64,000 nucleotides of DNA from Deltaproteobacteria bacterium (GCA_032128375.1 JAQBGU010000002.1:6400-70399); one strand, 5' to 3'. Positions 1,326 to 61,825 are shown, counted from the first letter of the stretch. Notes: a model not told the origin generated them from the letters alone. Translations and numbers: made by a program.

Positions 1326-1529
1326 TTGGCAGTAGGTACCGTGAAGTGGTTCAGCGACGAGAAGGGTTTTGGATTCATTACACCGGATGACGGTGGTGAC
1401 GATCTGTTCGTTCACTTCTCGAATATTGGTGGTGAGGGATTCAAGTCCCTGCAGGACGGCCAAAAGGTCGAGTACGAAGCCGGTCAGGGTCGAAAGGGTC
1501 CCGAGGCGACGAACGTACGCCCCGCGTAG
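1326..1529 (+). CDS. cspA: cold-shock protein, CspA family
   Basis: 67 aa: [34 protein letters not shown]..., with RNP1/RNP2-like motifs KGFGFI and DLFVHF. AAGGAG lies 7 nt upstream of the TTG start. Confidence 0.9.
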
Positions 1530-1668: not shown

Positions 1669-2202
1669 TCAACCCTTTCGGGCCTTCTTCATCATCGCGA
1701 TGATCGGCGACGCCTCGGCCGGGTGCCACTGGGTTTCCTTTGGATCCTGTGGCCAGACGAACGGCAGGTGCACGACCTCGCCCGGTTCGGTCGCAGTCGC
1801 CGCCACCGCGAGCGCGGCCTCTAGCACTGCGCGCTGCGTCTCGACGTCGCCATACGGCCGACCGAAGGGATGTTCGATTGCGGCCACGCGCGGCATTCCC
1901 ACCAGTCGCTGATACGGCCAGATCATGTTCAGCGTCACGGTCGGAATTCCCGCTGCTTCGATCGTGCGTGCGACCAGTCCCACGAGCCGGCAACAATCCG
2001 GTCAGACCGGCGCGAGCAACGCGAGGTCGACCTCCTGGTTTTGCATGCTCCTCGCGATCTGTGGCGCGCTGACGGTTTCCAACTCGCTGGAGTCGTTTCC
2101 CTGGTATCCCATGATCGAGTAGTTGGCGGCTCCACCAGATATCACGGAATCCGTCCAAAGACCTATACTTTCGCCTGCACTCGGACCTGCAGAGTCTCGC
2201 AT
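1669..2202 (-). CDS. short GrdB/PrdB-family (glycine/betaine/proline reductase B-like) protein; TGA at 2002-2004 read as selenocysteine
   Basis: Track ORFs 2002..2202 and 1669..1983 share a frame and are separated only by TGA plus six sense codons. Read-through gives ...LALLAPV-U-PDCCRLVGLVARTIEAAGIPTVTLNMIWPYQRLVGMPRVAAIEHPFGRPYG... The U-x-x-C-x-R ... E-x-AGIP ... HP-x-G-x-P spacing matches GrdB as I recall it. A hairpin lies at 1967-1984, 18 nt after the UGA. Confidence 0.6.
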
Positions 2203-2243
2203 GCGAGTTATCGAGCTGCCCCGGAACCCGGAGGAAGACGGAC

Positions 2244-3176
2244 GTGAAGCGCTTTATCTCACACGACGAACTCGCCCGCGATAGCCGCTTTTCGCGGCTT
2301 CGGTCGCGCAATCAATTGTTCCGATCGCTTCCCGACGATGTGGATGCGATCGTGAAGGTGCTCGAAAAAATCGGCCCAAAAATCCGCAAGCGAGTCGCGG
2401 GAACTCCGCTGGAGAAAGCCTATGACGAACTCGGTCCCGGTTTCACCTTTCTGACCGCAGGAGGTGGGCGCCAATCGAAGGAGCGGCGCAGTGAAGTCCA
2501 GATGCGGGTGCAGCTGCACGGGATCTTCGTCGGCGAATTGCAGGCGCTCGAAGCGGCCGGCCGAACGATCTGGGATTTCCCGGATGCGCCGTGGGAATTC
2601 AAAATGAACATGGCGCGCCAGTGCTGGGACGAGGCCCGCCACGTGCAGATTTTCGAAAAGCTGATTGATCACGTCGGCGGCGAAATCGGCGAGTTTCCCG
2701 AGAGCACCTTCCTGTTCGAGACTTCATGTCACGACGACCCGGTACTGCGCGTGACGGGTGTAAACCGATGCCTCGAAGGCCTGGCCTGCGATGCGTTTCG
2801 ATCGCTCATCGACTACGGGAAGTCGGTCGGCGACGAGGTCATCGCGCAGGCCGTCGACTACGTGTTGGCTGATGAACTCACCCATGTCCGCTTCGGAAGC
2901 GACTGGGTCAAGCAGTTCACCGAGGGAGACCCCGAGCACGCGCGACGAGCCAAGGAGTACCAGAACGAGACCGATCGGAGTTTCTCATTCGGCGGTGGTC
3001 GCCAGATCGCTCGGGAGGAGCGCGTCGAAGCGGGCTTTACCGACGAAGAAGTCGACGAACTCGAGGCCATCGAAAGGGAGGGCCCGAGACGAGAAACGCT
3101 GGTTCGGGCAGCGGAGATCCTTCGCGACCGCCATCAGGCTCGAAACCGGGGCGAACAGGTACCCGAACTCACGTAG
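2244..3176 (+). CDS. ferritin-like di-iron protein, DUF455 family
   Basis: GELQALEAAGRT ... ARQCWDEARHVQIFEKL ... RCLEGLACD ... LADELTHVRFGSDW, i.e. an E / ExxH / E / ExxH carboxylate-bridged di-iron ligand set. GGAGGA lies 8 nt upstream of the GTG start. Confidence 0.8.
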   Translation: MKRFISHDELARDSRFSRLRSRNQLFRSLPDDVDAIVKVLEKIGPKIRKRVAGTPLEKAYDELGPGFTFLTAGGGRQSKERRSEVQMRVQLHGIFVGELQALEAAGRTIWDFPDAPWEFKMNMARQCWDEARHVQIFEKLIDHVGGEIGEFPESTFLFETSCHDDPVLRVTGVNRCLEGLACDAFRSLIDYGKSVGDEVIAQAVDYVLADELTHVRFGSDWVKQFTEGDPEHARRAKEYQNETDRSFSFGGGRQIAREERVEAGFTDEEVDELEAIEREGPRRETLVRAAEILRDRHQARNRGEQVPELT

Positions 3177-3205
3177 TGGGGCCGGGATAGTGGGGCCGGG
3201 ATAGC
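3174..3205. repeat. 14-bp direct tandem duplication (TAGTGGGGCCGGGA x2 plus a partial third copy)
   Basis: Copies at 3174-3187 and 3188-3201 are identical. The first TAG is the stop codon of the DUF455 gene. Confidence 0.9.
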
Positions 3206-3250
3206 CGACTACACGGCCGCGCGTGATCCCAGCACCCTGTTCGACGCGCG

Positions 3251-4366
3251 CTAGATGCGCAGCCCCCGACCGACGCGCTTGCGGGTACCGTTGATCTCGC
3301 GCAGTTCGATGATGGCGTTTTCGGCGACGTCAGTACCGACGACTTCGTCTTCTTCTCCCGCGAGTTCATCCATATCGACCCACGCGCCGTAAATGGAACG
3401 CGTGCGTTCCGTGATGATGCCGGCCTTGAGCAGAGTCTTGATGAGCACACGGAAGATGTTCGTTCCCTCGGTCATCGACTGGCGCCGCTCGCCGTCGGTA
3501 AACGCCTCGAGTACCGCCGCGCGCACCCACTGCCAGTCGAGTCCGAACTCGTGGTAGATCTCCTGCTTCTGCTCGGCGTTGATCAGGTTCAACAGCAGCG
3601 TTTGGAAGCACTGCGCGGCCCATAGCTCGACTTCCTCGTGCTCCTGTTCGGTGAGGTGCGGGACAGTCCTGTCGGCCCAGATTTTTCCGAACTTGTGGTG
3701 GAAGGCCTCGTCGCTCATGACGAATTGGATCATCCGGCGCAACAGCGGGTCGTTGGTTTGCATGTTCAGCGTCGCAAACGCGCCCATCGCCAGGCCCTCG
3801 ATCAGCATTTGCATACCGATCAGCTTCTTGTAGACGATCGGCGACCGCACGATGTCGTCCATCAGGCTCCCGAGCGTTGCGCCGACCTTCAGCGGCTTGC
3901 CCCATCGGGTTTCGATGTACTTCGAAAATGCCGTGACATGGCGGGCTTCTTCGCGCGTCTGGTTGGCCGCGTATTCCTGCGCGCCCGGATCGCGCAGCAC
4001 CTGGCAGAGGCTCGCCGAGAGCGCCAACGCGCCCTGTTCGCCGTGAAGGATACTCGAGAGCATGAACCGCGCGTTCTGGTTCACCATGCGAATCTTCTGG
4101 CCTTCGTCGAGCTTTTCTCCGACGGCGCAATGCAGTTCGACCACCATCTGGGGGGGCAAGATCGTGTCCTGGGTCAGGTCGAACGGAGCGTTTTTGTAGT
4201 CGATGTATCGGGGGTCGAGCGGGTCCCAGAAGTGGTCGACGGTGGAAGAGATGATCGAATCGAATGCATCGCAGCGGTCGGCGTAGCGATCGACTTCGAT
4301 CATCGACATGAAGTCGTCGCGATCGACGGCGTTGTAGGCTTTGTCATAGGTGATGTTTTCGGCCAC
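3251..4366 (-). CDS. ferritin-like di-iron oxygenase (AurF-like family), paralog 1
   Basis: FMLSSILHGEQGAL ... TREEARHVTAF ... QMLIEGLAMG ... MSDEAFHHKFG, a di-iron ligand pattern. AGGAGA lies 8 nt upstream of the GTG start. Confidence 0.8.
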   Translation of the reverse strand: MAENITYDKAYNAVDRDDFMSMIEVDRYADRCDAFDSIISSTVDHFWDPLDPRYIDYKNAPFDLTQDTILPPQMVVELHCAVGEKLDEGQKIRMVNQNARFMLSSILHGEQGALALSASLCQVLRDPGAQEYAANQTREEARHVTAFSKYIETRWGKPLKVGATLGSLMDDIVRSPIVYKKLIGMQMLIEGLAMGAFATLNMQTNDPLLRRMIQFVMSDEAFHHKFGKIWADRTVPHLTEQEHEEVELWAAQCFQTLLLNLINAEQKQEIYHEFGLDWQWVRAAVLEAFTDGERRQSMTEGTNIFRVLIKTLLKAGIITERTRSIYGAWVDMDELAGEEDEVVGTDVAENAIIELREINGTRKRVGRGLRI

Positions 4367-4390
4367 GGGTACTGTCTCCTGGTATGGGCG

Positions 4391-4456
4391 CAGTTGCGAT
4401 TGCGAGCAGTTGTAGTTGCGTGTAGTTGCGTGTAGTTGCGAGTAGTTGCAGTTGAG
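4391..4456. repeat. 10-bp tandem repeat array (TGTAGTTGCG x3 perfect, degenerate flanking copies)
   Basis: Perfect copies at 4411-4440, flanked by CAGTTGCGAT/TGCGAGCAGT and AGTAGTTGCA/GTTGAG. The array starts 25 nt upstream of the di-iron oxygenase start codon. Confidence 0.9.
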
Positions 4457-4463
4457 AGAAGGT

Positions 4464-5144
4464 CTATTTTTCGATTCCGAGCTGGGCGGGATGAGTTCCC
4501 GCTAGTTGAATCCCAGTCAGGGTTTGAATCAATGTGTCACGCGACGCGCGGCTCGGATCTTCGACCCACCACGCGATCACCCGCGCCCACATGCCGACGA
4601 GGGCTTGCGAGAGAATGACCGGGTCCAGTTCGGCAGGCATTTCGCCGCTCGCGATCCGCTGGCGCCTTCCCTGTGCGATACCGGCCGCGAGTGTGCTCAG
4701 CAGATCGGTTTGTACGTCGGCATGCTCGCGGTCGCCGTCAGAGGCCCGATCGACGCTGAAGATGATGCGGACCCGCTCGCGATTTTCCTCGGCATAGCAG
4801 ACGAGCGCCTCGGCGATTCGCGGCACGCTGTCGCGCAGATCGCCGGAATCGGATGCAGCGTCGAGCCGTTGTTGCAGGTCGCCGAGCGCCTCGAACGCGA
4901 TCTCTCGAAACAGCGCGCCCTTGTCCTGGAAGTGCAGGTAGAAGGTGCCGGCTGCCATGCCGGCGTGATGTGCGACGTCATGGCTGGTAACCCGGTGCAG
5001 GCCCTTGGCGGCGAACAACGCGACGCCGCTCGAAAATAACCGTTCGCGGGTCGCAGCCCGGCTGCGTGAGCCAGCCGACCGGCGCTCGCTCGGTTCGGTT
5101 TCGGAAGTTTCCACCGCAGTCGAAGTGACGGACATGTCAGTCAC
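4464..5144 (-). CDS. TetR/AcrR family transcriptional regulator
   Basis: N-terminal HTH: RSRAATRERLFSSGVALFAAKGLHRVTSHDVAHHAGMAAGTFYLHFQDKGALF. Start is GTG 5144 or ATG 5135. Confidence 0.85.
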   Translation of the reverse strand: MTDMSVTSTAVETSETEPSERRSAGSRSRAATRERLFSSGVALFAAKGLHRVTSHDVAHHAGMAAGTFYLHFQDKGALFREIAFEALGDLQQRLDAASDSGDLRDSVPRIAEALVCYAEENRERVRIIFSVDRASDGDREHADVQTDLLSTLAAGIAQGRRQRIASGEMPAELDPVILSQALVGMWARVIAWWVEDPSRASRDTLIQTLTGIQLAGTHPAQLGIEK

Positions 5145-5159
5145 TGACAGTATCGTCAG
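5135..5159. promoter_or_regulatory. candidate TetR operator (overlapping palindromes)
   Basis: TGTCAGT-C-ACTGACA (5135-5149) overlaps CTGAC-AGTATC-GTCAG (5144-5159), giving three GTCAG/CTGAC half-sites. It sits at the TetR start, in the divergent region facing the second di-iron oxygenase. Confidence 0.45.
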
Positions 5160-5231
5160 CCGAACAGATCGGCAACAGCAAAGAGCCCGGCGGCAGTTTC
5201 GCGGACGATCTGCTTGCCCCGGAGATTGCCA

Positions 5232-6389
5232 ATGGGTTACAACCAGTTACGCGATCGTCAACCGCTTACAGAGCCGATACGGGTTCAGCACCCAGACACA
5301 GGATTCCCCATGATCGAGGCACTCCCCGAGCGCCAACCCCTATCCACCGAATCGACAGCGACCGCCATCGACGCGGTCTACAACTGGAACTACGAACCTG
5401 AAATCGACGAACTGAGGACGCTGTACGCGAACGCGCTCGATCGCCAGTGGATCTCAGTGCGCGACCTCGACTGGGAGCGCGGCGTCGACCGGGACGCATT
5501 CGCGCGAAGTTTCTCGCTGGCCGGGTTCCCGATCCAGCAGACGCAGTTCTGGAAGAACCTCGACCCGGATCTGCAGTGGCAGATTTCGCGCCGCACGGCG
5601 GCCTTCATGCTGTCTAATTTTCTGCACGGGGAGCAGGGCGCACTGATGGCTGCGTCTCAGATGGTCTCGGCCGTGCCGCACATGGATGCGAAGTTCTACG
5701 CGGCCACCCAGACGATCGACGAGGCGCGTCACGTTGAAGTGTTCGCGGCGTTCATTCGCCAACTCGACGAAGTCCATCCGATCATGCCGTCTTTGAAAAG
5801 CCTGCTCGACCGCACGCTCTCAACCGATTGTTGGATGCAAAAGGCTGTCGGCATGCAGATCGTCGTGGAGGGTCTGGCGCTGTATGTGTTCCGCGACATG
5901 CGCAACACGACCGAGGAACCGCTTCTCGAACAGCTGCTGACGCTGGTATCCCGCGACGAGGCGCGTCACACCGCGTTCGGCATCAAATACCTGCGCCAAG
6001 TGGTCGGTGATCTGAGCGTCGCAGAGCGCGAGCGGCTCGAAGATTTCGGGTTCGAGGCGGCGCGTATGTTGGTGGACTCGCGAACCGGCGGCTCGATGCG
6101 CCAATCCGCGCTGCAGATCTGGTCCGATGCCGGTATGGATCCGCAGACAGTCTTCGGCGAGTTGCTAAAGGAGCGCGAGATGTTCGCGCAAGTCGGCCAG
6201 GATTCCGCTGGACCGATTCGCGGTTTCGTGATCCCGACGCTGCGCAGCATCGGGTTGTTCAGTGATCGCATGGAGAAGAATTTTCGCGAGATGTTCACCG
6301 CCAACTTTGGCGAAGAGCGCGCGAACAAGATGAATCTGCAAGGCGATCTTCCCGATGACCTCGACGCATGGGTAGAAGCGCGCGTCTGA
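5232..6389 (+). CDS. ferritin-like di-iron oxygenase (AurF-like family), paralog 2
   Basis: FMLSNFLHGEQGAL ... TIDEARHVEVF ... QIVVEGLALY ... SRDEARHTAFG. The ATG at 5232 has GGAGA 6 nt upstream; the track start TTG 5214 is also possible. Confidence 0.8.
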   Translation: MGYNQLRDRQPLTEPIRVQHPDTGFPMIEALPERQPLSTESTATAIDAVYNWNYEPEIDELRTLYANALDRQWISVRDLDWERGVDRDAFARSFSLAGFPIQQTQFWKNLDPDLQWQISRRTAAFMLSNFLHGEQGALMAASQMVSAVPHMDAKFYAATQTIDEARHVEVFAAFIRQLDEVHPIMPSLKSLLDRTLSTDCWMQKAVGMQIVVEGLALYVFRDMRNTTEEPLLEQLLTLVSRDEARHTAFGIKYLRQVVGDLSVAERERLEDFGFEAARMLVDSRTGGSMRQSALQIWSDAGMDPQTVFGELLKEREMFAQVGQDSAGPIRGFVIPTLRSIGLFSDRMEKNFREMFTANFGEERANKMNLQGDLPDDLDAWVEARV

Positions 6390-6422
6390 CTCCACCTCGC
6401 GCCCGGCCAGGAGTGGTGCGCC

Positions 6423-7208
6423 ATGTCGCCCGAATTCGCCGACGAATACGGTCCCGTCACCTCACGCTACTACGATGACACCTACGCGGCGCTCCGCGAT
6501 TCGAGCGGCGATGCGAACTGGTACCTCGGGTTGGCGCGAGCGGCGAAGGGCCCCGTGCTCGAGCTGGGCTGCGGGACCGGCCGTGTGCTGTTGCCGGTCG
6601 CTCGGGAGGGGATTGTCTGCACCGGCCTCGATGCATCGCCTGCGATGCTCGATGTCTTTCGCCAAAAGAACCCGCCGGACAACCTGCGTCTGGTCGAGGG
6701 GGCGCTGCAGAACTTCGATCTGGGCGAGGAGCGCTTCGCGCTGATTTTTTCGGCATTCCGCGTGTTTCAGCACCTCTACACGATCGACGATCAACTCGCC
6801 TGCCTCGCGCGCGTTCGAAGCCACCTCGCGCCCGGTGGCGCTTTGGCTTTCGACGCGTTCGTCCCGCGTCTCGAAAGGATGTGGATCCTGGAAGAGCCGG
6901 AAGCAGAGGACGCGCGCTTCGAACAGCGAGGAGACGAGATCGTCCGCTACGCGTCCGTGCGTCGCGATCTTCTGGAGCAACTGACGAAATTGTGTATGCG
7001 CTACGAACGCCGTCGCGGTGGTCAGGTGGTCGGCAACGAGACCGTCGAGTTCCAGATGCGCCACTTCTACCGCTATGAACTCGAGCACCTGCTGAAACGC
7101 GCAGGATTCGATCAATTCGAGCTGTACGGCGATTTCGACGGAACACCGTTCGGCGCCGAAGCGACTTCGTTCGTCGTCGTCGCGCGCGCGAGTTCTGGCT
7201 CGTCCTGA
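6423..7208 (+). CDS. class I SAM-dependent methyltransferase
   Basis: Motif I VLELGCGTGR, then an acidic loop GLDASPAML. AGGAG lies upstream, and the gene starts 33 nt after the di-iron oxygenase stop, so it is probably co-transcribed. Confidence 0.8.
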   Translation: MSPEFADEYGPVTSRYYDDTYAALRDSSGDANWYLGLARAAKGPVLELGCGTGRVLLPVAREGIVCTGLDASPAMLDVFRQKNPPDNLRLVEGALQNFDLGEERFALIFSAFRVFQHLYTIDDQLACLARVRSHLAPGGALAFDAFVPRLERMWILEEPEAEDARFEQRGDEIVRYASVRRDLLEQLTKLCMRYERRRGGQVVGNETVEFQMRHFYRYELEHLLKRAGFDQFELYGDFDGTPFGAEATSFVVVARASSGSS

Positions 7209-7424
7209 ACCCCCGGCCGCGCCGTGATGGCTGCGGGAACGCGATGAGTTGCGCGTTCGCCGCTGCGGCGAAAGCTTCCCCGTCGTCGCCCGACCCATCT
7301 GGGGCCGGGTAATCTCCAAACCCGTATCCGTCCCGTTACAAGACGACCTTCGCTTCTTCCGACCTCTCAAGCCCGCACCCCCATGGGCTCACCTCACGGT
7401 TCGCTTTCCCTCGCAAGCGGACAC

Positions 7425-8792
7425 TCAGGGAATCCCAGCAGCCCGCCGCACGGTATCGAGCAGTAGTTGCGTCCCGAGCCGGAGGTTCTGTGTCGAAATC
7501 CGCTCGTCGTGGCCATGCACACCACCGACTTCTTCTGTCGTGAGCAGTACCGGCGTGTAGCCGATCGCCGGCACGCCGTGCTTGCGATAGATCCGGCTGT
7601 CGGTGAAGCCGGGAGAGATCATCGGCATCACGACACCGCCGTTCGTCTCGTGGCGAATCGTCGCCTCGATGTGATCGAGCAATTCGGTGCGCACTTCGGA
7701 GACGAGCGGTAGGCAGCGATAGCTGACCTCGATTTCGACCTTCTCGTCATTGATGATGGCGCGCAGATCCTCGAGATATCGATCGACATCCTGAGCCGGA
7801 AGCAGGCGACAATCCAATGTGGCACTGGCTGCAGCCGGAATCACGTTGTGCTTCTTGCCCCCGCCTAGCGTGGTGAGGCTCACGGTATTGCTCACCAACG
7901 CGCGCACCAGATCGCTGGCTGACGCCAGGCCCTTGAGTGCCTGCGGGTCGCGAAAGTCGAGGTCGGCGGGCAGCATCCCATTATCGACCAGCGTCTGCAA
8001 CGTGAGCTCCGTCTCCGGCCGCAACACCACCGAGGTTTCGATATCGGCGATCCTCCCGAGGGCCTGGATCAGCCGAAGTGGCGCATTGTCGCCGTGCGGG
8101 ATCGCGCCGTGACCCGGTCTGCCCTTCGCGGTGAGCCGCAACCACAACGGCGCCTTTTCAGTCGGGGCGACGCCGAAGATCAAGCCGCGCTTGCCGAGCA
8201 ATTCGCCGAAACCGTACGCGCCCTCGTTGATCACGCCGTCCGCCACCAGCAGCTCCGGGTGGTTGACGGCGAGCCAATCCATTCCAAACTGGCTGGCTTC
8301 CTCTTCGTCGGCCACCGCCAGGAACAGGATGTCTCGGCGATGCTCGACCTTCTGGCGCTGCAGCAGCACGAATGCCAGCAGCTCCATGATCCCCATGCCT
8401 TTCATATCCAGTGCACCGCGTCCCCACAGGACGCCGTCTTTGAGCAGACCCGCATACGGATCGACGCTCCAATAGTCGCGTTCGACCGGAACGACGTCGA
8501 TGTGCGACAGCAGCACGAGCGGCTTGGTGCCCGCACTGTTGGTGCCGGGGCGCCGCGCAGAGACCGAAACGCGTCCATCGCCGGCGTCGTAGGTTGTTGG
8601 GTCGAACCCCTCTGATCGCAGGATCTGTGCCAGTAATTCGACGCCGGCCTCCTCACCACCCGGCGGGTTGGTGGTATCGATGCGCAGGTAGCGCTGCAGA
8701 AGGGAGGTAGCCTCGTCTTCGAGTTCATCCCAGTCGATCGGGAGGACGGAAAGTTTTTCGTTCAGGGACGCGTCGTGGGAGTGGTCGGCCAT
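7425..8792 (-). CDS. M20/M25/M40 family metallopeptidase
   Basis: LLSHIDVVPV ... WSVDPYAG ... GVLWGRGALDMKG ... ADEE, the typical M20 metal and catalytic motifs. Confidence 0.8.
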   Translation of the reverse strand: MADHSHDASLNEKLSVLPIDWDELEDEATSLLQRYLRIDTTNPPGGEEAGVELLAQILRSEGFDPTTYDAGDGRVSVSARRPGTNSAGTKPLVLLSHIDVVPVERDYWSVDPYAGLLKDGVLWGRGALDMKGMGIMELLAFVLLQRQKVEHRRDILFLAVADEEEASQFGMDWLAVNHPELLVADGVINEGAYGFGELLGKRGLIFGVAPTEKAPLWLRLTAKGRPGHGAIPHGDNAPLRLIQALGRIADIETSVVLRPETELTLQTLVDNGMLPADLDFRDPQALKGLASASDLVRALVSNTVSLTTLGGGKKHNVIPAAASATLDCRLLPAQDVDRYLEDLRAIINDEKVEIEVSYRCLPLVSEVRTELLDHIEATIRHETNGGVVMPMISPGFTDSRIYRKHGVPAIGYTPVLLTTEEVGGVHGHDERISTQNLRLGTQLLLDTVRRAAGIP

Positions 8793-41139: not shown

Positions 41140-41650
41140 GGCTCCGTACCTGGGTTAGGCCGCGGTGCACTGTATCTTGCCTCACCTGCCTTCGCGGGCC
41201 CCCCTCGTTCCACGCCCTCATGAACGACGCCAGCGCTTGACTTTGCGGAACGCTCTGAGAAAGGCCCTTCGGGCCAGGCAGGCCGTCGATGATGCCGAGC
41301 TCGATCGACAGCGCGCCGAGTCCGCGCACGACCAGCTCATGGAACACGCTGGCCCAAGCTTTCGAAGACCTCCTTGTCCCCGGCTTGGAGCATGATCACC
41401 CCCGTGTCGGCGGCTCGTCGTCACGCCGCTCACCACCAGCATGCATTGCTTCCCGATCTCCTTGCCCCTCCGCATCGAAAGTCGGATCGACCGCCATCTC
41501 GCGGATCGCAGCGGCGGCATTGGAAGCGAGCGCCGTCTTCGAGCTCTGGTGGGTTCATGACCTGGGCTACGGACTCCGATCGCGCCTGTGCGCGTAGGTC
41601 AAAGAGCGCGACAAGGCTCTGCTGGTCGCACGCTTTGACCTATCCTCGAA
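41140..41650 (-). pseudogene. multiply frameshifted remainder of a DUF2461 (TIGR02453-like) gene
   Basis: Downstream of the sulfatase stop, three frames carry protein-like pieces (SLVALFDLRAQARSESVAQVMNPPELEDGARF / AAAAIREMAVDPTFDAEG / IMLQAGDKEVFESLGQR / VFHELVVRGLGALSIELGIIDGLPGPKGLSQSVPQSQAL). Stops and frameshifts interrupt them, and none is an intact ORF with a start codon. Confidence 0.35.
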
Positions 41651-43276
41651 TTATCCTGCACCTTCTCGCCCCATATTCTCGCTGAACATCAGGTGCAAGC
41701 CGTCTTTGTAGGGCCGTTTGTCCTTGGAATAGCGCACGTCGCGATCGATGCGCATGATCGCGCCGTTGATGCGCGGCGCTGCGAGGACCGGTGCGAGTTT
41801 CTGCAACTCGGTGCCAATCGCCGAAACGAATTTTTTCGTTCCGGAATTTGTTGGCCCGGAATCGCCAGTCAACAAGGCGTCGAGCAGCGTGTTCAATCGC
41901 TCTACTGTGTCGCGATTCTCAGGGTCATAGGCCACGTTTTGATATTCGCGCGGATCGTTCTGGTGGTCGTAGAGTTCGGCTCCCAGCAACTCCCATTCAC
42001 CGCCGCGGCGGCCTCCCCAGCGAACGTAGCGATACCTCTGTGTGCGCACGGTCTGGCCGATCGAATTGGCCCGATACGCCCAGCCAAGAGCTGCTTCCTC
42101 CCACGGCCGATCGGGATCGTTCAGCAGCGCGACGAAACTCACGCCTTCGCCCTGGCGGGGATCGGGAATCCCCGTCAGTTCGCACAAGGTTGGCAGAATG
42201 TCGGCCGATTCCACCAGCCCGCTCGAAGACTGTCCACCCAAGACGCCTGGCACACGCAGGATCAACGGAATGCGAAGCGATTGTTCCAGAGCGGTGTTCT
42301 TGCCCCAGATTCCGTGCTCGCCCAGATGCCAGCCGTGGTCCCCCCAGAGCACGACTACGGTTCGATCGGCGAGCCCTTGCCGCGCGAGCTCGGCGAGCAA
42401 TCTCCCTATCTGTGCGTCGACGTAGCTGACGCAGGCGCGATAGCCGTGGATCAACCGTTTGGCCGTGTCGGCGTCGATCGATCCGCCACCGTCGTAGACG
42501 CGCGGCTCATAGTTGCCATGAAACTGCTGATTGGCAACGCGATACATACCCTCTCGATCGGGGACCTCGATCTGATCGCGATCGTAGAGATCCCAATACC
42601 TGGCAGGACAATTGAACGGAAGGTGTGGACGAACGAAACCGACCGCCAGGAAGAAGTCGCGGTCTTCCATCCTCCGCAGCTCTTCGATTGCCCTTGTCGC
42701 GATCTTTCCGTCTACGTACGCGTCGTCCGGGACATCGGGTGCTTCGGATATGGGCCCGCGTCGGGAGGTTTGAATTCCCGACATGTGGACGTTTTCGGTC
42801 GCCAGATATTGGGGGTGAACCCATTCGGGCGGTAGCCAACTCTCGCGGCTCCAAGCCTCCGGCGCGTCTTTTGCGGTGTGCAGGAACTTTCCCACCTCGA
42901 CGGTTTCATAGCCCGCATCCTTGAATAGGCGCGGGAGCGGGATCAAGCGCGGGTTGCCCTCAGACAACGCCGGAGCCATGAAGATTACCCCCGTGGTCTG
43001 CGGATACGCTCCACTCAGCATCGAAGCGCGTGACGCAGCGCAAGCCGCTACGGCGGCGTAGGCTCGATCGAATCGCACACCTTGCGCTGAAAGTCGGTCG
43101 ATGTTGGGTGTAATCGCTGGTGCGCCGTACGCACCGAGTTCCGGGCGGAGGTCATCGACGGAAATGAAAAGTACGCTCAACCGCGACCGCTTCGGCTGGA
43201 TTCGCTCGGACGGACATCCGAATGAAAACAGCAGAGCAAGAAGCATCGCTATCCGAATCAATCGGTACACAGTCAT
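41651..43276 (-). CDS. formylglycine-type sulfatase (lipoprotein) with foreign DUF2461-like C-terminal tail
   Basis: MTVYRLIRIAMLLALLFSFGC signal; VLFISVDDLRPELG; AACAASRASMLSG (C-x-A-x-R variant of CxPxR); WGDHGWHLGEHG. The last ~60 aa, KKFVSAIGTELQKLAPVLAAPRINGAIMRIDRDVRYSKDKRPYKDGLHLMF, match the DUF2461 RxxRDxRFSxDKxPYK motif. Confidence 0.8.
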   Translation of the reverse strand: MTVYRLIRIAMLLALLFSFGCPSERIQPKRSRLSVLFISVDDLRPELGAYGAPAITPNIDRLSAQGVRFDRAYAAVAACAASRASMLSGAYPQTTGVIFMAPALSEGNPRLIPLPRLFKDAGYETVEVGKFLHTAKDAPEAWSRESWLPPEWVHPQYLATENVHMSGIQTSRRGPISEAPDVPDDAYVDGKIATRAIEELRRMEDRDFFLAVGFVRPHLPFNCPARYWDLYDRDQIEVPDREGMYRVANQQFHGNYEPRVYDGGGSIDADTAKRLIHGYRACVSYVDAQIGRLLAELARQGLADRTVVVLWGDHGWHLGEHGIWGKNTALEQSLRIPLILRVPGVLGGQSSSGLVESADILPTLCELTGIPDPRQGEGVSFVALLNDPDRPWEEAALGWAYRANSIGQTVRTQRYRYVRWGGRRGGEWELLGAELYDHQNDPREYQNVAYDPENRDTVERLNTLLDALLTGDSGPTNSGTKKFVSAIGTELQKLAPVLAAPRINGAIMRIDRDVRYSKDKRPYKDGLHLMFSENMGREGAG

Positions 43277-43451
43277 CGCTCCACTTCGCATCATGCAGTC
43301 GGCGATGTGTTCGTTCTCAGATAGCATCCCCGAGTTCGAAGGAACGTTCACTGGTGATCCCTCTGTCAGGGAGCCAGGAGAATACTCTGAATTCGCACGA
43401 AAACGTCGATCGCCGGATCAGGTCGTGCCAGCCATATCTCGTTGGCAACCC

Positions 43452-44774
43452 ATGAACCGCACAGCTCGGATGTCGCTCCTGATCGCTCTCACGCTTCTCG
43501 CGTTGGGGATCCGGGCAGCGTACGTGGCCACGGCTGTCGTCGACAATCCCATCCGCGCAGATGCGGCGCAATACGTGAGATACGGCTACAACCTCGCGTT
43601 CCATGGCGTCTACTCATCTGCGCAGGCGCCCGATGTCCTCGAGCCCGATTCTTTTCGCTCGCCTGGTTATCCGCTTCAGCTGGCCGCTCTCCTCGCGCTA
43701 GTCGACAACCCGGCTGCCTTCTACCGCACGCAGCTCGTCATCCAGGCTTTTCTGTCTGCGCTCGTGGTTCCGATCGTGATCCTACTGGCAAGACGGACCA
43801 TGCGGGAATCATACGCGCTCGCGGTGGGATTGATGACCGCGCTGATGCCGCACCAGGTCACGTCGAGCGGCTACTTGCTCACCGAGACACTCCAGTCGTT
43901 CCTATTCGCGGCCAGTATTCTCGGGTTCGTGACTTCACTCGCAAGACACAGAATCAGTACTTCTGTGCTTGCGGGGATCTTGTTCGGTCTGCTGTACATG
44001 ACCAACGAGGCTACGCTGCTGCTTGCGCCGCTGTTGGTCGCTCTGGTCTTGCTGGGGAGTCATACGGCGCGCCATCCCCGGTCCCGACGCGGGCTGATCG
44101 TCCTTCTAGGCTCGTTCGCGGTGTTTCCTGTGGCTTGGCAGCTCCGTGGCATCGTCAGCATTCCCGCCGAATCGAAGAACCTGGGCTCCGGAAGGGCTTG
44201 GTCTGCGGCTGTGGAGGGCAGCTATCCGGGCTTTCGGTTCGGTGAGCACTCCACATACGGATATGCATATCGAGCGGATTCCGAGTTTCGCGACATGCAA
44301 ACGTCGGCGCACCGGTTCTTTGAAGTGATGAGGTCGCGTGTTGCCGACGACCCGACTCGGTACCTCGCGTGGTACTCCTTCCAGAAACCACTGGCTCTGT
44401 GGAAGTGGGGGTTCGTGCAGGGTGCGGGCGACATCTACATCTACGGAGTCGACAAATCGATCTATGAATCGCAAGGTTGGGCTCGCCTAACGCGTGAGTT
44501 GATTCGCTCTCTGCACCCATTTGCGCTGTGTCTTGCTGCCTTCGCCATCATCCACGCCGCGTTCGGGATCTACCGAAAGGGCCTTGCGTCTGATTTGATT
44601 GTCCCCGCCGTGCTCTCCGTGACGATTGTGTACTGGACCGCGGTTCATACGGTCCTCCTGGCACTGCCGCGATACGGCATCGCGTTGCGTCCTGAAGTCT
44701 ATCTACTCGCAGCATGGGCTCTGGTCGAAAGCGCGCCATGGCCGCGGAGGATCATCGCACTTCTGCGACAATAG
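43452..44774 (+). CDS. GT-C fold membrane glycosyltransferase-like protein (family 39/PMT_2-like)
   Basis: MNRTARMSLLIALTLLALGIRAAYV..., first-loop IRADAAQYVRYGYNLAFHG, then 10 or more hydrophobic helices. The track start at 43101 overlaps the divergent sulfatase. Confidence 0.6.
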   Translation: MNRTARMSLLIALTLLALGIRAAYVATAVVDNPIRADAAQYVRYGYNLAFHGVYSSAQAPDVLEPDSFRSPGYPLQLAALLALVDNPAAFYRTQLVIQAFLSALVVPIVILLARRTMRESYALAVGLMTALMPHQVTSSGYLLTETLQSFLFAASILGFVTSLARHRISTSVLAGILFGLLYMTNEATLLLAPLLVALVLLGSHTARHPRSRRGLIVLLGSFAVFPVAWQLRGIVSIPAESKNLGSGRAWSAAVEGSYPGFRFGEHSTYGYAYRADSEFRDMQTSAHRFFEVMRSRVADDPTRYLAWYSFQKPLALWKWGFVQGAGDIYIYGVDKSIYESQGWARLTRELIRSLHPFALCLAAFAIIHAAFGIYRKGLASDLIVPAVLSVTIVYWTAVHTVLLALPRYGIALRPEVYLLAAWALVESAPWPRRIIALLRQ

Positions 44775-44894
44775 ACGGCCCGATTCCCGCGGACCGAGCG
44801 CGTCACCACGCGCTTCGCGGTGGACCGCGCTGGGTGCGTCGCCCGGGGTCGAAGTCATCGACCGCGTTCATCCTCAGGCCAATACCAGTTGGCA

Positions 44895-46871
44895 TCACTG
44901 TAGAGCGGCTTTTCTCGGCCTATCCTCCAGAAGTACACCCAGGTTGTACTGGGCCTCTGCGTAGTCCGGCCTGATCCGTAAGGCCTCTTGGTAGTGCGTC
45001 ATCGCCTCTGCGAGGCGTCCCAGGTCCTGGACGGCGAGGGCCCAGTTGTAGTGAGCCTCGGCCAGGTTCGTCTTGTTCCGCAAGGCATCTCGGTAGTGCG
45101 CGATCGCCTCCTCAGAACGGCCGAGGTTCGCCAACGCGGTTCCCCAGTTGTAATGGGCATCGGCGTAGTCCGGCTCGATCCGCAATGCGTGTTCGTAATG
45201 CGCAACTGACTCCTCGAAGCGCCCCAACAGCTGCAGGGCGGTGCCCCAGCCGTCATGGGCCTTGGCGTGATCCGGCTCCAACCGCAAGGCCTTTTGGTAA
45301 TGCGCCACCGCCTCTTCAGGACGGCCAAGACCCGCCAGGGCAACGCCCCAGTTGTAGTGGGCCTCCGCGTAGTCCGGCTCGATCTGCAACGCTTCTTGAA
45401 CTTGGGTCAGCGCCGCATCAAAGCGTCCGACCCTTCCCAGAGCGGCGCCCAGGTTGTTGTGGGCTCTGGCGTGCTGGGGGCTCTTCGAGACCACATCGCT
45501 CCAGAGCGTGATCTCGTCCTGCCAGACCTGGTTTCGGTGGTACGAACCTACTGCCAGTAGCAGACAGATGGCCGCGGGCACGGCGACCGCCCAGCCCGAC
45601 GGGGCCCCCGTTCCAGCGAACAGCAGCCAGGCCAGCAACAGTGAAAAGCCGACCATTGGCAGATACAACCGGTGCTCGAAAACCATCTCCAGCCCGATCA
45701 CACTCGATTCGATCACCAGGTGCAGGAAAAACCATAACAAGCAGAAGGAAGCAATCCGATGTCGGTGCGCCAGATAGAGGGTCAGGCCCAACAGGCCAGA
45801 GATACCCACCATCGAGAGCAACGTGGTGATCGGTTCGATCGGAGATTGCGAAGGGACGACTTGATGAATCAGGTTCAGTCGCGACGGATGTGGCACCGCC
45901 AGCAGGCTGAGATAGAACATGACGACGCGAAATTGTGTCATTAGCCGCTGGCCCAACGTGAAGTCACGATGGGCGTAGCTCGCCAACAACCTGTCGAGTG
46001 GCTCACTGCCCAGGTAGAGCCACGCCAGCAACCCCAGCAACCCCAGCAGCGCCAACGCCAGCAATCCGAACTTTGTGTTCTTCTTGGCACCAGCAACGCC
46101 CGAGTCCTGAAAGAAGTACCACTCGAACCACAGGATGGTCACCGGCAGGGTGACGGAGATCTGCTTGCTGCCCAAAGCCAATAGCCAACAGACAACGCTG
46201 CTTGCCCAAAGTGTCCAGCGACGACGGGGCGCCTGTGCAGTGCGTCCGTAGATATAGAGCAACAGCGCCGCCAGGTAGAAAAATGCGCACAGGCTGGTCA
46301 TCCGCTGGACGATGTACGTCACCGCCTGAGTTTGGATCGGATGACTGGCGAAGATCAGGGCAGCTGTCAGCGCGATCCAATGCGAAACGGAAGGCCGCAA
46401 CAGGCGGTCCTCGCGCGGCGGGACCCGCCGGAGCACGGCCAGCGCCAGCAGGTACACGAGCAAGGCAGTGAGCAGGTGGATGCCGATGTTGACGACATGG
46501 TATCCCCTGACGTTGTGCTGGCCGAAGTAGTAGTTCAGCGCGAAGGAAAGGTTCGCCACCGGCCGACTCGGACTGGGGCTCTCGCGCACGGCTCCTTGCA
46601 CGCCCGACCAGCTGAAGTCCGTCCAGCGTAGGCTCCGGTTGTCTTGGATGTTGGGAACGTCATCAAAGACAAACGGCCCGGAAAGGCTGTTCGAATAAGC
46701 GGCCAGACAGAGAACAGCGATAGATGACATCGCGAACACGTGAAATGCGCCGTGTCGGCCGGGGACTGAATCAACGGCGTTTTGCGACGCCGCTTTTCGC
46801 GGATTGGATTTTCGGCTGAAGCTCTTTCGACGGCCCACGCGTGCGATTGTAACCCGACCCGGGACTTGCAT
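44895..46871 (-). CDS. TMTC-like protein: GT-C-type membrane domain plus C-terminal TPR array
   Basis: N-terminal helices with FVFDDVPNIQDN (a DD loop-1 motif as in PMT/TMTC). The C-terminus has about 8 TPRs (repeated AHYNWGxAL...GRxEEAxxHYxxALRxxPDxAxA). Confidence 0.75.
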   Translation of the reverse strand: MQVPGRVTIARVGRRKSFSRKSNPRKAASQNAVDSVPGRHGAFHVFAMSSIAVLCLAAYSNSLSGPFVFDDVPNIQDNRSLRWTDFSWSGVQGAVRESPSPSRPVANLSFALNYYFGQHNVRGYHVVNIGIHLLTALLVYLLALAVLRRVPPREDRLLRPSVSHWIALTAALIFASHPIQTQAVTYIVQRMTSLCAFFYLAALLLYIYGRTAQAPRRRWTLWASSVVCWLLALGSKQISVTLPVTILWFEWYFFQDSGVAGAKKNTKFGLLALALLGLLGLLAWLYLGSEPLDRLLASYAHRDFTLGQRLMTQFRVVMFYLSLLAVPHPSRLNLIHQVVPSQSPIEPITTLLSMVGISGLLGLTLYLAHRHRIASFCLLWFFLHLVIESSVIGLEMVFEHRLYLPMVGFSLLLAWLLFAGTGAPSGWAVAVPAAICLLLAVGSYHRNQVWQDEITLWSDVVSKSPQHARAHNNLGAALGRVGRFDAALTQVQEALQIEPDYAEAHYNWGVALAGLGRPEEAVAHYQKALRLEPDHAKAHDGWGTALQLLGRFEESVAHYEHALRIEPDYADAHYNWGTALANLGRSEEAIAHYRDALRNKTNLAEAHYNWALAVQDLGRLAEAMTHYQEALRIRPDYAEAQYNLGVLLEDRPRKAALQ

Positions 46872-54286: not shown

Positions 54287-57172
54287 TCAGAAGTTGAAGA
54301 TCACGCTGCCGCCGACCGTTCGGGGATCCCCCACGAAATAGATGCTGGTGTTGGTGAAGGTGCTGCCGTCGAAGGCAAAGGTCTTGTACGCCTCATTGGT
54401 CAGGTTGCGCACCCATCCCGCGACTTCGAACCGGCCGCCGGGCGCTCTGTAGGACAGTCTCAAGTTGTGCAACCAGAACGGTGTCTGTGAGGTGGTGTGG
54501 TCTGGGAGAAACTCGATGTTCTGGTTGTTCGGGATCCCTCGGCCCTCCGTCGCATCGAAAAAGGTCTCGTCGGTCCAGACCCCGTCGTAGCGCAATGTCA
54601 ACGAGCCGTACGACCACAGCGGAAGCGTCTGCTCACCGGTCATACTGATCTTGAACCTGGGAGAATTGAGCAGCGAGTTACCGGTGTTCTGGAGTTCGCG
54701 GTTGACGACGACCTTGGCGCCTGAAATGACCGTTGTGTCCTGCTGGATCTGAACGAAGTCGAGAAACTCGCTTTCGATCCAACCGACCCGGAGATTGGCG
54801 AACGCCCCGTACCAGGGCCGGATCACCGCGTCGAGTTCCGCGCCGTACACCTCGGCCGCATCCGCATTGATGATCACGAACTCCGGCTGGCCACCGACGA
54901 ACTGCTGGGCGGTGAACAGCTGGTAGTCGGAATAGGAGTAGTAGAACACCGAGAAGTCGACGCTCAGGCGCCCATCGAGCCAGCTTCCGCTCACCCCGGT
55001 TTCGAACGAGTCGATTGTCTCGGGCCGCGCGACCGAGACCCCCTGTCCCGGCGAGCTGGTGGCATTGTAGGTCCCGGGCTTGAAGCCGCGCGTGTACTTC
55101 CAGAAGGCGTGCGTGTCCTCGCGGAAGCGGTAGGTCAGACGAATCGTACCGGTAGGGTCCTGCCAGATATCGTTGAGCAACTCCGGGCAGATCCCATCCG
55201 GACCACACTGAGTTCCTGAGAAGAGCTCGTAGTCGAGCTTCTTTTGTTCCCAGTTGTATCGGATGCCACCGTCGAGCGTGAAATCGTCCCAGAAGTCGAA
55301 GGCCAGGCTCAGGTAGCCCGCTGCGCTATAGACGTCCTGGGTGTAAACGCGCTTGCCAACTCCGAAAGTACCCGCCACCCCTGGACCCAGATCGTTCGTG
55401 ACCTCGACGTCGAGATTCTCACGCAGAAACCAACCGCCGACCTCCCAGCGGGCACGCCCTTCGCGGAACTGGCCATCGAGTTTGATGTCCTGTGTGAACT
55501 GCCAGCCCTCGTCGTCCGTCTCGATCTGGAACAAGGTCTCTGGCGAAAAGTCGAGGTCGATATCGAGGAAGCGGTCGTAGGTGTCGTAGCCGCTGATCGT
55601 GGCGAGCTGCATTCCCAGCGGCAGCGCGATGTCGCCCTTGAGATAGCCCCCCCAGGTGTCGTTTATCGTTTTTCCGGCATTCTTCTTACACTGCGTTCCG
55701 GGTGCTCCTCCGATGAACACGCCGTTTTCATCAAAAGATGGATCAGTATCGCTTTTTGCGCCGCAGATGTTGAAGTCGCCTACCCACGGCTTGGAGTCGA
55801 GATCCGTGAGTTCCTTGGCCAATATGACCTTCGCCGTGTCCAATTCCTGCCCTCTGAAAGCCTGGGGAACACAGCGGCTCCCTTCCGGGCTGCCAGGTAC
55901 AGAAATGTTCCCCGGTACTGCCGGGTAGCAGTTGGGGGCCAGCTCTCTCAGTCGCTGCCGGATCTCGGGTGCGCGATACCCGGGACTCGTCAGCACCCCT
56001 TGGGTCCCCCCCAACGTGCCGCCGATAAACGCTGTCCCGGGTCGATTTTCGATGCAATTGGAGACGTCGCCGTTCGCACAGGTGTTCCCAAACGTTCCAA
56101 TGGATTGGCCGAGGCGGGTCAACTCGTCCCGCCGTGAGCCGTGTGCATTCACCAGAAAGCTCGCATCCAGCGTGGGTTGGAATAGAAAGGTTCCGCGTGC
56201 CGCCCAGTTGTTGGTGTCGTTTACGTGATCGGGGAGCCCCGGAGGGACTTGCCCGGACATGTACTGCGGAATTCCTCCCCCGGGATTGGCCAGGTTTTCG
56301 TTGACGTTGAGTCTGACCGGTTCGCCACAGACCGACCAGGGTCGGTCTGTGTTCAGAAGACCTGATCGTTGGAGTACCGCGTTCGATGGGACCGCAGCGC
56401 GTTCGGAGTAGGGTTTGGCGCCTCCGCAGCGGTTCTTCATGGTCCCATCGCGCTCGGTCAAACGGAAGGCGAATCGAGCCGAAAGGATGTCCTCGAAAAG
56501 CGGAGTTTCGACGGCGCCCTCGTAGTCACGAAACCCAAAGTCGCCAAGGTCGCTGCGAAGGAAACCACCGAATTCGCCCGTAGGCTTGCGGGAGTAGATC
56601 TTGATCGCCCCCGCCGACGCATTGCGCGCGAGGCCGGTGCCCTGGGGTCCACGCAGGACGTTGACAGCCTCGATGTCGAAGAGCGTGTCGAGTTGCAGCG
56701 CTGGGGCGTTTCTGACCACGTCGTCTTGATAGATGGCGACAGCACCGGTTGAATTGGAGTTGAAGTCGTTGAGGCCGACGCCGCGGATGAAAAAGGTCGG
56801 CGAGGTCGCACCGTAGGACACGATTTCGAGATTGGGGGTAAACGCCGCGATGTCGGCGATGTTCTGGGCACCCAGTGCCGCCAGGTCCTCGGCGCCGAAG
56901 CCCGTCACCGAGTCGGCGACACTGAAATCACGCGCGGCATCCGATTCGCCGCCCCGCACCAGGAACTCCTCGATTCCGGGCCGGGACGGCGGTTCCCGAT
57001 CGAAACCGGGCGATGCCTCGTCGTCGGAATCCGGCAGGGGCTCTTGTGCCCGTGCCGGCGGCGCAGCGACGATCGCCAGCGCGTACCCGACCGCGATTGC
57101 AACGGCGACCCAGGAATTTCCGCATTGGGTGTGGGGCAGCCCGTGGCCCCGTCGCTCGACTCGACTCTGCAT
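54287..57172 (-). CDS. TonB-dependent receptor
   Basis: Signal peptide ...WVAVAIAVGYALAIVAAPPARAQ; plug motifs IEEFLVRGG, NIADIAAFTPN, FIRGVG, AVAIYQDDV; long beta-barrel ending ...GGSVIFNF. AAGGA lies upstream of ATG 57172 (alternative 57193). Confidence 0.9.
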   Translation of the reverse strand: MQSRVERRGHGLPHTQCGNSWVAVAIAVGYALAIVAAPPARAQEPLPDSDDEASPGFDREPPSRPGIEEFLVRGGESDAARDFSVADSVTGFGAEDLAALGAQNIADIAAFTPNLEIVSYGATSPTFFIRGVGLNDFNSNSTGAVAIYQDDVVRNAPALQLDTLFDIEAVNVLRGPQGTGLARNASAGAIKIYSRKPTGEFGGFLRSDLGDFGFRDYEGAVETPLFEDILSARFAFRLTERDGTMKNRCGGAKPYSERAAVPSNAVLQRSGLLNTDRPWSVCGEPVRLNVNENLANPGGGIPQYMSGQVPPGLPDHVNDTNNWAARGTFLFQPTLDASFLVNAHGSRRDELTRLGQSIGTFGNTCANGDVSNCIENRPGTAFIGGTLGGTQGVLTSPGYRAPEIRQRLRELAPNCYPAVPGNISVPGSPEGSRCVPQAFRGQELDTAKVILAKELTDLDSKPWVGDFNICGAKSDTDPSFDENGVFIGGAPGTQCKKNAGKTINDTWGGYLKGDIALPLGMQLATISGYDTYDRFLDIDLDFSPETLFQIETDDEGWQFTQDIKLDGQFREGRARWEVGGWFLRENLDVEVTNDLGPGVAGTFGVGKRVYTQDVYSAAGYLSLAFDFWDDFTLDGGIRYNWEQKKLDYELFSGTQCGPDGICPELLNDIWQDPTGTIRLTYRFREDTHAFWKYTRGFKPGTYNATSSPGQGVSVARPETIDSFETGVSGSWLDGRLSVDFSVFYYSYSDYQLFTAQQFVGGQPEFVIINADAAEVYGAELDAVIRPWYGAFANLRVGWIESEFLDFVQIQQDTTVISGAKVVVNRELQNTGNSLLNSPRFKISMTGEQTLPLWSYGSLTLRYDGVWTDETFFDATEGRGIPNNQNIEFLPDHTTSQTPFWLHNLRLSYRAPGGRFEVAGWVRNLTNEAYKTFAFDGSTFTNTSIYFVGDPRTVGGSVIFNF

Positions 57173-57198
57173 CCGATTCCTTCCGGCCATCATCCACT

Positions 57199-57249
57199 CA
57201 CTACCGGTTTGACTACCAGTTCGACTACCAGTCTCGTCCAGTCTCGTCT
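57199..57249. repeat. two adjoining short tandem repeats (12-bp GACTACCAGTTC-like x3; 10-bp CAGTCTCGTC x2)
   Basis: CACTACCGGTTT GACTACCAGTTC GACTACCAGTCT CGTCCAGTCT CGTCTCG, in the 134-bp divergent region between the TonB-dependent receptor and the 57328 gene. Confidence 0.85.
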
Positions 57250-57327
57250 CGCGGGTGCGAGGATCGAAATCCCCGTTCGATTGGGAGCATATCCCGGAGC
57301 ATTCAACTGTGATAATACTATGCGGCC

Positions 57328-58392: not shown

Positions 58393-58587
58393 GCGCACCG
58401 ACGATGGGGTAGCGCTCAGGAGCTGAGAGCAGCCCCTTTGTCCCTAGTCGCCTGCGATCGCACCTCCGATGTGCAGCCAACCGGGGGCTTTTCGGTCCGC
58501 GAACAGGTTTCTTGACTTTCGGCAGCGGATTTGTGGTTAAATCTCGGACCCCTGCGTGGGGTGTGATTCGATTCTTTGGAGGTCTGC

Positions 58588-61392: not shown

Positions 61393-61420
61393 CGCAAAAG
61401 CGAGCAGGACAGAGGAAAGC

Positions 61421-61825
61421 ATGCGCCGACGACGACAAAGGGCCAACGTATCCAGTGAAGTGAACCTGACGCCGATGCTCGACGTCGTGTTCATCATGTT
61501 GATTTTCTTCATCGTGACCGCCTCGTTCGTGAAGGAATCAGGTATCGACGTGACGCGTCCACCCGCAGCCACCGCAACCCGAAAGGAGCGTGGCAACATC
61601 CTGATCGCAATCACCGCAAACGATCAGGTCTGGATGGATCGGCGCCAGGTCGATCCGCGCGCGCTGCGAGCGAACATCGAACGCATGCACGCCGAAAACC
61701 CGCAAGGCAGCGTGGTGATCCAGGCCGACACGAAATCGACCAATGGTCTGCTCGTCAAGGTGATGGATGCCGCCCGCTCGTCGGGTGTATCGAGCGTTTC
61801 GCTGGCCGCCGAGGTCGTCAACTAG
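61421..61825 (+). CDS. exbD: biopolymer transport protein ExbD/TolR
   Basis: MRRRRQRANVSSEVNLTPMLDVVFIMLIFFIVTASF... Confidence 0.9.
   Translation: MRRRRQRANVSSEVNLTPMLDVVFIMLIFFIVTASFVKESGIDVTRPPAATATRKERGNILIAITANDQVWMDRRQVDPRALRANIERMHAENPQGSVVIQADTKSTNGLLVKVMDAARSSGVSSVSLAAEVVN

Follow-up and report, generated by a model that had tools for sequence, protein, structure and literature searches.

A probable 5'-deleted remnant of a known PrdB-like selenoprotein gene in the genome of a Deltaproteobacteria bacterium

In a 64,000-nt stretch of DNA from a Deltaproteobacteria bacterium (the window in what follows), two predicted ORFs of the minus strand lie on either side of a TGA codon, which raises the question of whether they form a single selenoprotein gene and, if so, whether this gene is complete. 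A preliminary description of the locus had proposed that reading through the TGA yields a short GrdB-family selenoprotein of 177 aa carrying a U-x-x-C motif. The layout it gave was borne out. The minus strand from 2202 to 1669 is a single frame whose sole interruption is the TGA at 2004-2002; the two ORFs (2002..2202 and 1669..1983) share this frame and are separated by the TGA and the six codons CCG GAT TGT TGC CGG CTC (PDCCRL). Read-through gives 177 codons and the peptide quoted there, ...EVDLALLAPV-U-PDCCRLVGLVARTIEAAGIPTV..., in which the motif is found as U-P-D-C. The features of the locus are collected in Table 1.

Table 1. Features of the PrdB-like locus and its immediate surroundings, in window coordinates.
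Feature	Position	Strand	Basis or remark
Retained gene part, codons 139-292 of the 292-aa relative (NYSIMGYQG...KKARKG; stop TGA 1671-1669; internal TGA read through)	1669..2124	-	
In-frame TGA, predicted Sec codon of the PrdB-like family	2002..2004	-	TGA in the aligned column of 44/44 Sec-type loci; Cys there in full-length Cys homologs
Redox motif U-P-D-C-C (UxxC of the PrdB/GrdB family)	1990..2004	-	PDCCRSVGLV directly after the TGA in 42/44 loci
SECIS-type family hairpin, window form UGU.U.GCCGGCUC[GUG]GGACUGGU.C.GCA	1969..1995	-	Recurrent MFE hairpin, weakened in the window copy
Hairpin of the preliminary description, CGUGGG-ACUGG-UCGCACG	1967..1984	-	-2.8 to -3.0 kcal/mol
Private TC>CT change	1985..1986	-	Unique among 44 loci; derived on the window branch
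Private in-frame 9-nt loss, one GDV of the tandem GDVGDV gone (YGDV---ETQ)	1843..1852	-	Loop length comparison
Junction of the 440-nt deletion, GGAGCCGCC/AA/CTACTCG	2122..2125	-	Alignments with syntenic L024, L026 and L027
Sequence across the deletion junction, GGAGCCGCCAACTACTCG			
Former 5'UTR/intergenic DNA, now in frame with the remnant, including a fortuitous ATG (2202-2200)	2125..2243	-	In L024, L026 and L027 the matching DNA is non-coding and precedes the RBS/ATG
Predicted N-terminus of the 177-aa product from ATG 2202, MRDSAGPS...			
DUF455 (ferritin-like) gene, divergent neighbour, synteny anchor	2244..3176	+	Pfam lists of L002, L026 and L027
Cold-shock-domain (CSD) gene, convergent neighbour, synteny anchor	1341..1529	+	Pfam lists of L002 and L024-L027

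The nature of the TGA was addressed by comparison with homologous loci. Both of its flanks are conserved in one frame in the 44 Sec-type loci, with the codons beside it varying synonymously, and the column aligned with it holds TGA in every one of these loci and Cys in the full-length Cys homologs, the pattern that the preliminary description had suggested looking for. The Cys homologs comprise 16 full-length clusters (P0142, P0157 and P0241-P0254; 287-299 aa) that, P0252 excepted, read TP[AG]-C-P[LF]CC[RQ][ST]VG, and L045 and L046 are further Cys forms. Judged by these alignments, the arrangement at 2004-2002 is not a product of chance, since the same column is used, with coding conservation on both sides, in 44 independent loci. 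The family is moreover on record: a 'Proline reductase PrdB' with pfam07355 and a UxxC motif was listed by Zhang & Gladyshev, in 2005 with 42 Sec genes from the Sargasso Sea (PMC1088965, Table 3) and in 2008 for GOS with 235 forms carrying Sec and 110 carrying Cys (PMC2398784, Table 2), and a 2026 review enters D-proline reductase/TIGR04483 with the UxxC motif. Under the name 'PrdB-like', the literature gave no match. On sequence grounds, the TGA at 2004-2002 is thus the selenocysteine codon of an already published and widespread PrdB-like selenoprotein family. Separately, the full-length homolog P0252 carries Trp at the Sec/Cys column (LSPA-W-PFCC), consistent with a TGA>TGG change.

Profile searches supported the homology to selenoprotein B/PrdB that had been claimed. 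Among NCBIfam profiles, TIGR04483 (PrdB) matched the 177-aa window product with E=4e-18 (65.7 bits; equivalog cutoff, 300 bits) and the full-length relative L024 (292 aa) with E=1e-44 over profile positions 17-234 of 238 (152.5 bits, again under the 300-bit cutoff). The GrdB, GrdF and GrdH models matched the window product more weakly than TIGR04483 and all far under their cutoffs; for TIGR01918, the selenoprotein B subfamily model, the window scored 28.2 and L024 53.8 bits, both below its cutoff of 65.45 bits. PF07355 (GRDB), against which a search had been suggested, did not recognize the product: neither the 177-aa product nor either of its halves gave a Pfam match at E<=1, while the intact relative L024 passes the PF07355 gathering threshold of 22 bits with 36 bits. 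The window retains only ~40 residues of the region spanned by that model. A sequence search of the PDB gave no match.

That gene callers would miss or truncate this gene, as also foreseen, held well beyond the window, entries across databases stopping or starting at the UGA. Among 5.8 billion proteins searched, 779 matched, and the best 120 of these are all 104-120 aa long and cover the post-TGA part only, indicating that the family is cut short by gene callers everywhere. Intact members have 287-305 aa with the UGA at codon ~179; on a 3-Mb MAG contig, the 173-aa ORF before the TGA matches PF07355, and read-through gives 286 aa with U at 174. The 19/19 loci from named genomes match over essentially their whole length (L017 and L021 being frameshifted), and metagenome loci that include upstream DNA are nearly all full length too. 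The hosts are MAGs of Myxococcota/'Deltaproteobacteria', Binatia, Thermoanaerobaculia, Spirochaetes and Sumerlaeota.

Components of the selenocysteine machinery were not detected at the loci searched. A tRNA scan of the 64-kb window gave no hits, tRNA-Sec was likewise absent from the 24 loci searched, and SelA, SelB or SelD domains were found neither in 30 large window ORFs beyond 11 kb nor in the Pfam annotations of L002 (first 12 kb). A scan of the window for other TGA-split coding frames gave shadow frames only.

The extent of the gene turned out to differ from what had been proposed. With the full-length L001 and L024 proteins as tblastn queries, the window gave a single match region (72% and ~95% identity, respectively), at 2124..1678, which covers L001 residues 134-285 (in L024 numbering, 139-292); the N-terminal part of the protein was found by these searches nowhere in the 64 kb. 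The closest relatives, L024 (95% identical), L026 and L027, have the gene order of the window, with the DUF455 gene divergent upstream and the CSD, DUF3179 and further genes downstream, and each of them encodes a 178-aa ORF before the TGA. Alignment of the window DNA with these three loci revealed a clean gap of 440 nt, made up of 24 nt of leader, in which the GGAGG ribosome-binding site lies, together with the ATG and codons 1-138. The GGAGG-N-ATG of all three relatives falls within this absent segment, so that the native start and RBS are gone from the window. The 'short GrdB-family protein' of the preliminary description is therefore what a 440-nt deletion has left of a protein whose intact members are 287-305 aa long.

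In L024 the lost segment is flanked by a short GCCG..CGA microhomology of about 4-7 nt, and the junction recurs identically in L002, L003 and L004. Comparison of the window with the NCBI MAG contig and with two Logan assemblies (runs ERR5010711 and ERR5010722) gave 0 mismatches over 1152-1163 nt across the junction; since the same sequence was obtained in the MAG contig and in assemblies of different runs, the deletion is very probably real. Among JGI metagenome contigs, the exact junction had zero matches.

The DNA upstream of the junction (2125..2243) has no protein homology, and a scan for sigma-70-like promoters gave no match in it. As the alignment with the relatives indicates, the first 26 codons of the proposed product (2202-2125) correspond to former non-coding leader, and in DNA of 61% G+C the frame over this segment is open by chance alone.

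Several further elements were noticed around the remnant. Upstream of the deletion, at 2135-2168 on the minus strand, survives a leader element, GTATA(C)GG.CTTTGGACGG.ATCCGTGATATCTG, with a small ACGG-N3-CCGT palindrome; it is kept in L024, L026 and L027 and partly in L042 and L051, a TetR gene lies nearby, and the element could act as an operator or a promoter. Between the convergent remnant and cold-shock gene, a perfect 8-bp hairpin (CCCCGATC-TATC-GATCGGGG, 1557-1576) with a T-rich plus-strand side is probably the terminator of the CSD gene, and was left unflagged by the terminator scan. On the other side, at 2244-8792, the remnant is adjoined by DUF455 and AurF-like di-iron oxygenase genes, a TetR regulator, a SAM methyltransferase and an M20 peptidase, a cluster kept in L026 and L027. 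Farther away, a 3.7-kb stretch (41213-44895) lacks any ORF >=150 aa with high third-position G+C, and genes for a TonB-dependent receptor, DUF3450, ExbB, ExbD and TPR proteins, an ordinary uptake machinery, are clustered at 54287-63742.

We then considered what the deletion would mean for the protein. Across 20 full-length members, 36 of the 133 aligned columns that make up the absent N-terminal part are invariant. The AlphaFold model of the Cys homolog P0142 (pLDDT 90.9, pTM 0.90) is one compact alpha/beta unit, of which the deletion takes out four of the nine predicted strands plus four helices. The half that is retained appears in this model as a complete b-a-b-a-b-a-b-a-b-a unit, with the Sec column after a strand and at a helix N-terminus. 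A Foldseek search of the model against the PDB returned nothing significant (best E=0.016, TM<=0.36). In a library of 1.84 billion proteins, the best 150 of 1290 representatives included none made up solely of the C-terminal half.

Downstream of the UGA, the family loci share a hairpin with the consensus UGY.U.GCCGGUCC[GUG]GGACUGGU.C.GCR, whose lower stem and 8-bp upper stem begin 6 nt and 10 nt after the UGA, respectively, and which is capped by an apical G-U-G loop (G-G-U-C-G in three loci). It is the MFE structure in nearly all homologs, at -10.6 to -17.4 kcal/mol (median -14.3). The strongest support for a candidate role as the family SECIS comes from frozen synonymous sites: the Arg codon is CGG in 20/20 homologs (25% background), the Leu codon CUG in 20/20 and the Gly codon GGA in 18/20 (16% background), and codon entropy falls to 0.23 of background in codons +5..+10 against 0.84 elsewhere (Mann-Whitney p=5e-5), the codons for Arg at +12 and Gly at +18 varying freely. 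Compensatory double changes in the stem were not found among the homologs, all variation being wobble-compatible, because the stem encodes the invariant peptide CCRSVGLV; shuffle controls for covariation were uninformative. Thermodynamic z-scores, which are weak in this G+C-rich context, were -1.7 for L024 and +0.15 for the window, and Rfam gave no match in the whole window.

A different hairpin, at 1967-1984, had been put forward as the SECIS. It folds at only -2.8 kcal/mol and is mutually exclusive with the recurrent family hairpin at 1995-1969, and across the homologs it shows more broken cells, so that we discarded it as a weak fold competing with a conserved one. In E. coli fdhF, the SECIS is a hairpin just 3' of the UGA with the upper stem ~11 nt away and an apical-loop G and U that are bound by SelB. 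The family hairpin resembles it in lying inside the coding region, in its upper stem 10 nt after the UGA and in its G-U-G loop; it differs in sequence and lack of an Rfam match, in the C.A mismatch of the window upper stem, and in that SelB binding is here only putative. Decoding of the family UGA would be directed by this SECIS-type hairpin, and its SelB dependence would follow from established bacterial Sec insertion. As a separate observation, one metagenome locus among L028-L050 has, after CC, a CAG (Gln) codon where all others have CGG (Arg), a variant that converts the G17.U29 wobble of the hairpin to A-U and keeps the pairing.

The window copy has also acquired changes of its own. In the family hairpin, the TC>CT change leaves C.A in place of U19-A27 and U.G in place of C20-G26, and at the same time it replaces the otherwise invariant Ser of CCR-S-VG by Leu. 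The window hairpin, at -9.1 kcal/mol, is the weakest of the 44, about 5-6 kcal/mol having been lost relative to L024. Owing to the loss of one GDV, the loop between GRP and Q has 6 residues in the window and 9 in all 42 other loci; the columns hit by the Ser>Leu change and the GDV loss are invariant in 42-43 other loci. A third private change in the remnant is E>Q. When changes were polarised with outgroups, the window branch showed 5 synonymous and 3 nonsynonymous changes and the L024 branch 6 and 0, a contrast that is suggestive of relaxed selection on the window branch and is not significant. Between the window and L024, dN/dS is 0.17 including the junction, with 14 synonymous and ~3 real nonsynonymous differences, and as dS is only 0.135 the truncation would be recent. 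The retained 154 codons contain no frameshift and no stop except the Sec TGA.

Decaying copies were encountered in other lineages as well. In L051 (1001-1464), AGGAG-N7-ATG GCG AAG ACG CAC TAT TCG encodes MAKTHYS..., the TGA and SECIS that come after it are intact, and taken alone this locus could pass for a natural short form. This candidate was rejected: in L052 and L042 the native gene starts MAKDSIDRDG...EVDPWRF, with ...IGSMAKTHYS internal, and the comparison shows that in L051 two 10-nt direct repeats (GATGGCGAAG) gave rise to a deletion that removed codons 4-137; L051 has in addition a 13-nt frameshifting loss in the GDVGD loop. L052 (1001-1506) carries three other lesions; it has lost ~90 nt after DPWRF, has frameshifts and lacks a further 181 nt that took the SECIS and about 60 codons with it. 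L051 and L052 are near-identical alleles of one population with different large deletions, their relative L042 looking intact. Elsewhere, L021 (6001-6706) lacks residues ~94-133 and has a frameshift and a 151-codon C-terminal reading, and L017 (5951-6004) is frameshifted near codon 22; the lesions of these two loci may represent genuine decay or indel errors of long reads. The deletions in the window and in L051 are independent and end within four codons of each other at the THYS boundary, near which the contigs L025, L047 and L050 also start (query residues 141, 138 and 130); such contig ends may reflect structural polymorphism that breaks assemblies. The presence of decaying copies in several lineages fits gene loss and not a maintained short isoform.

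How the locus should be read was weighed on these data. We consider it highly probable that it is a recently inactivated remnant, the 3' half (154 of ~292 codons), of a known PrdB-like selenoprotein gene and not a new short selenoprotein. That the TGA is an ordinary stop between two unrelated small ORFs adjacent by chance has a negligible probability: gene callers do annotate two ORFs, but the coding conservation across the stop in 44 loci, the Cys at the stop position in full-length homologs and the published selenoprotein family speak against it, and the Cys homologs and the conservation rule it out at the family level. An intact 177-aa GrdB-family selenoprotein starting at ATG 2202 with a SECIS at 1967-1984, as first proposed, draws on the frame being open from 2202 to 1669 save for the TGA and on the homology of the product to selenoprotein B. 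It is extremely unlikely, given that codons 1-26 align to non-coding leader DNA of the relatives, no Shine-Dalgarno precedes 2202, no short-form family occurs among the loci or in the best 150 of 1290 representatives, the product fails PF07355, and the hairpin it requires (-2.8 kcal/mol) competes with a conserved one. What stands of that interpretation is the Sec codon and the family; the gene extent, its integrity and the SECIS position do not. It is also very unlikely that the 440-nt gap was misassembled in a genome that really carries the full gene. Assemblies of MAGs and metagenomes can collapse sequence, and the exact junction is missing from JGI metagenome contigs, yet the MAG contig and the Logan assemblies of ERR5010711 and ERR5010722 are identical over 1152-1163 nt, and a microhomology of about 4-7 nt is far under assembler k-mer sizes.

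Somewhat less improbable, though still unlikely, is a truncated yet functional mini-selenoprotein, in which the C-terminal Rossmann-like U-x-x-C half would use a new start under the control of the old promoter and work either by itself or together with a partner, deletions at this boundary being tolerated or selected. The predicted completeness of the retained b-a-b-a-b-a-b-a-b-a unit, with Sec at a helix N-terminus, would be compatible with it, as are the retained codons, which show a low dN/dS and lack disabling mutations, the in-frame ATG (2202) and GTG upstream, and the apparently retained former promoter region. So are the independent L051 deletion, which joins the native SD/ATG in frame to T-H-Y-S, and the L025, L047 and L050 contigs, which end at the same boundary. 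L051, however, also bears the 13-nt frameshift, and the SECIS and about 60 codons are absent from its sister allele L052, which marks this lineage as decaying; in the window itself the SECIS is weakened, the invariant Ser replaced, the constant-length loop shortened and the native RBS and start gone, and intact short-form proteins are missing from the best 150 of 1290 representatives. We regard as decidedly improbable the fuller version of this idea, in which the C-terminal U-x-x-C half is autonomous, N-terminal deletions recur since a short isoform can be tolerated or even confers an advantage, the window gene being a living mini-selenoprotein with a new start.

Under the preferred reading, that of an inactivated remnant, the UGA at ~179 of intact members would be read as selenocysteine in U-P-D-C-C by means of the hairpin with the G-U-G loop. 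In the window lineage, a 440-nt deletion between short GCCG-type microhomologies would have removed the Shine-Dalgarno, the ATG and codons 1-138 and joined former leader DNA to codon 139, and the remnant would later have gained the TC>CT change (affecting SECIS stem and Ser), E>Q and the GDV loss. It is most likely non-functional, and would give rise to no functional selenoprotein or at most to a non-functional fragment stopping at the UGA.

The family was finally set against known systems. With the marine 'Proline reductase PrdB' family (PMC1088965, PMC2398784) it shares the Pfam family, the UxxC motif and the coexistence of Sec and Cys forms; the public annotation of that family stops at the UGA, its fragments bearing the JGI label 'D-proline reductase (dithiol) PrdB'. 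The window copy departs from an intact member in that codons 1-138 are missing along with the RBS and start, and in its damaged SECIS. Intact relatives are homologous end to end to clostridial PrdB (TIGR04483), with Sec in UxxC at the corresponding region, but are about 50 residues longer and, at 152.5 bits, far under the 300-bit equivalog cutoff, and their hosts are not Stickland-fermenting clostridia. GrdB/GrdF/GrdH (TIGR01917/TIGR01918) are homologous over the C-terminal ~200 residues including the Sec region (E about 1e-14), but GrdB has about 430 aa, and no grdA or grdE lies near the family loci. In the Pfam lists of six annotated neighbourhoods, no PrdA, PrdC or GrdA/GrdE-type genes were found, and across about 20 loci there was no conserved neighbour, clustering giving an antisense shadow ORF and clade-specific neighbours only. 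By homology, the family is PrdB-like, with a D-proline reductase role that is putative, as it scores under the equivalog cutoff and lies outside a prd operon context; a thiol/selenol redox function at the U-x-x-C centre is a reasonable inference.

The family and its Sec codon are already known, and the remnant makes no long-standing question newly testable. It does draw attention to a known family that is systematically mis-annotated, with >1000 database entries broken up into pieces of about 175 and 107 aa, and to 'PrdB' proteins that occur without PrdA in non-clostridial phyla, where a D-proline reductase role is only putative. It also illustrates that read-through alone is insufficient to call a new selenoprotein, for it was synteny with close relatives that exposed the 5'-deleted remnant. 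For the family itself, repeated deletional decay across lineages fits the known pattern of bacterial selenoprotein loss.
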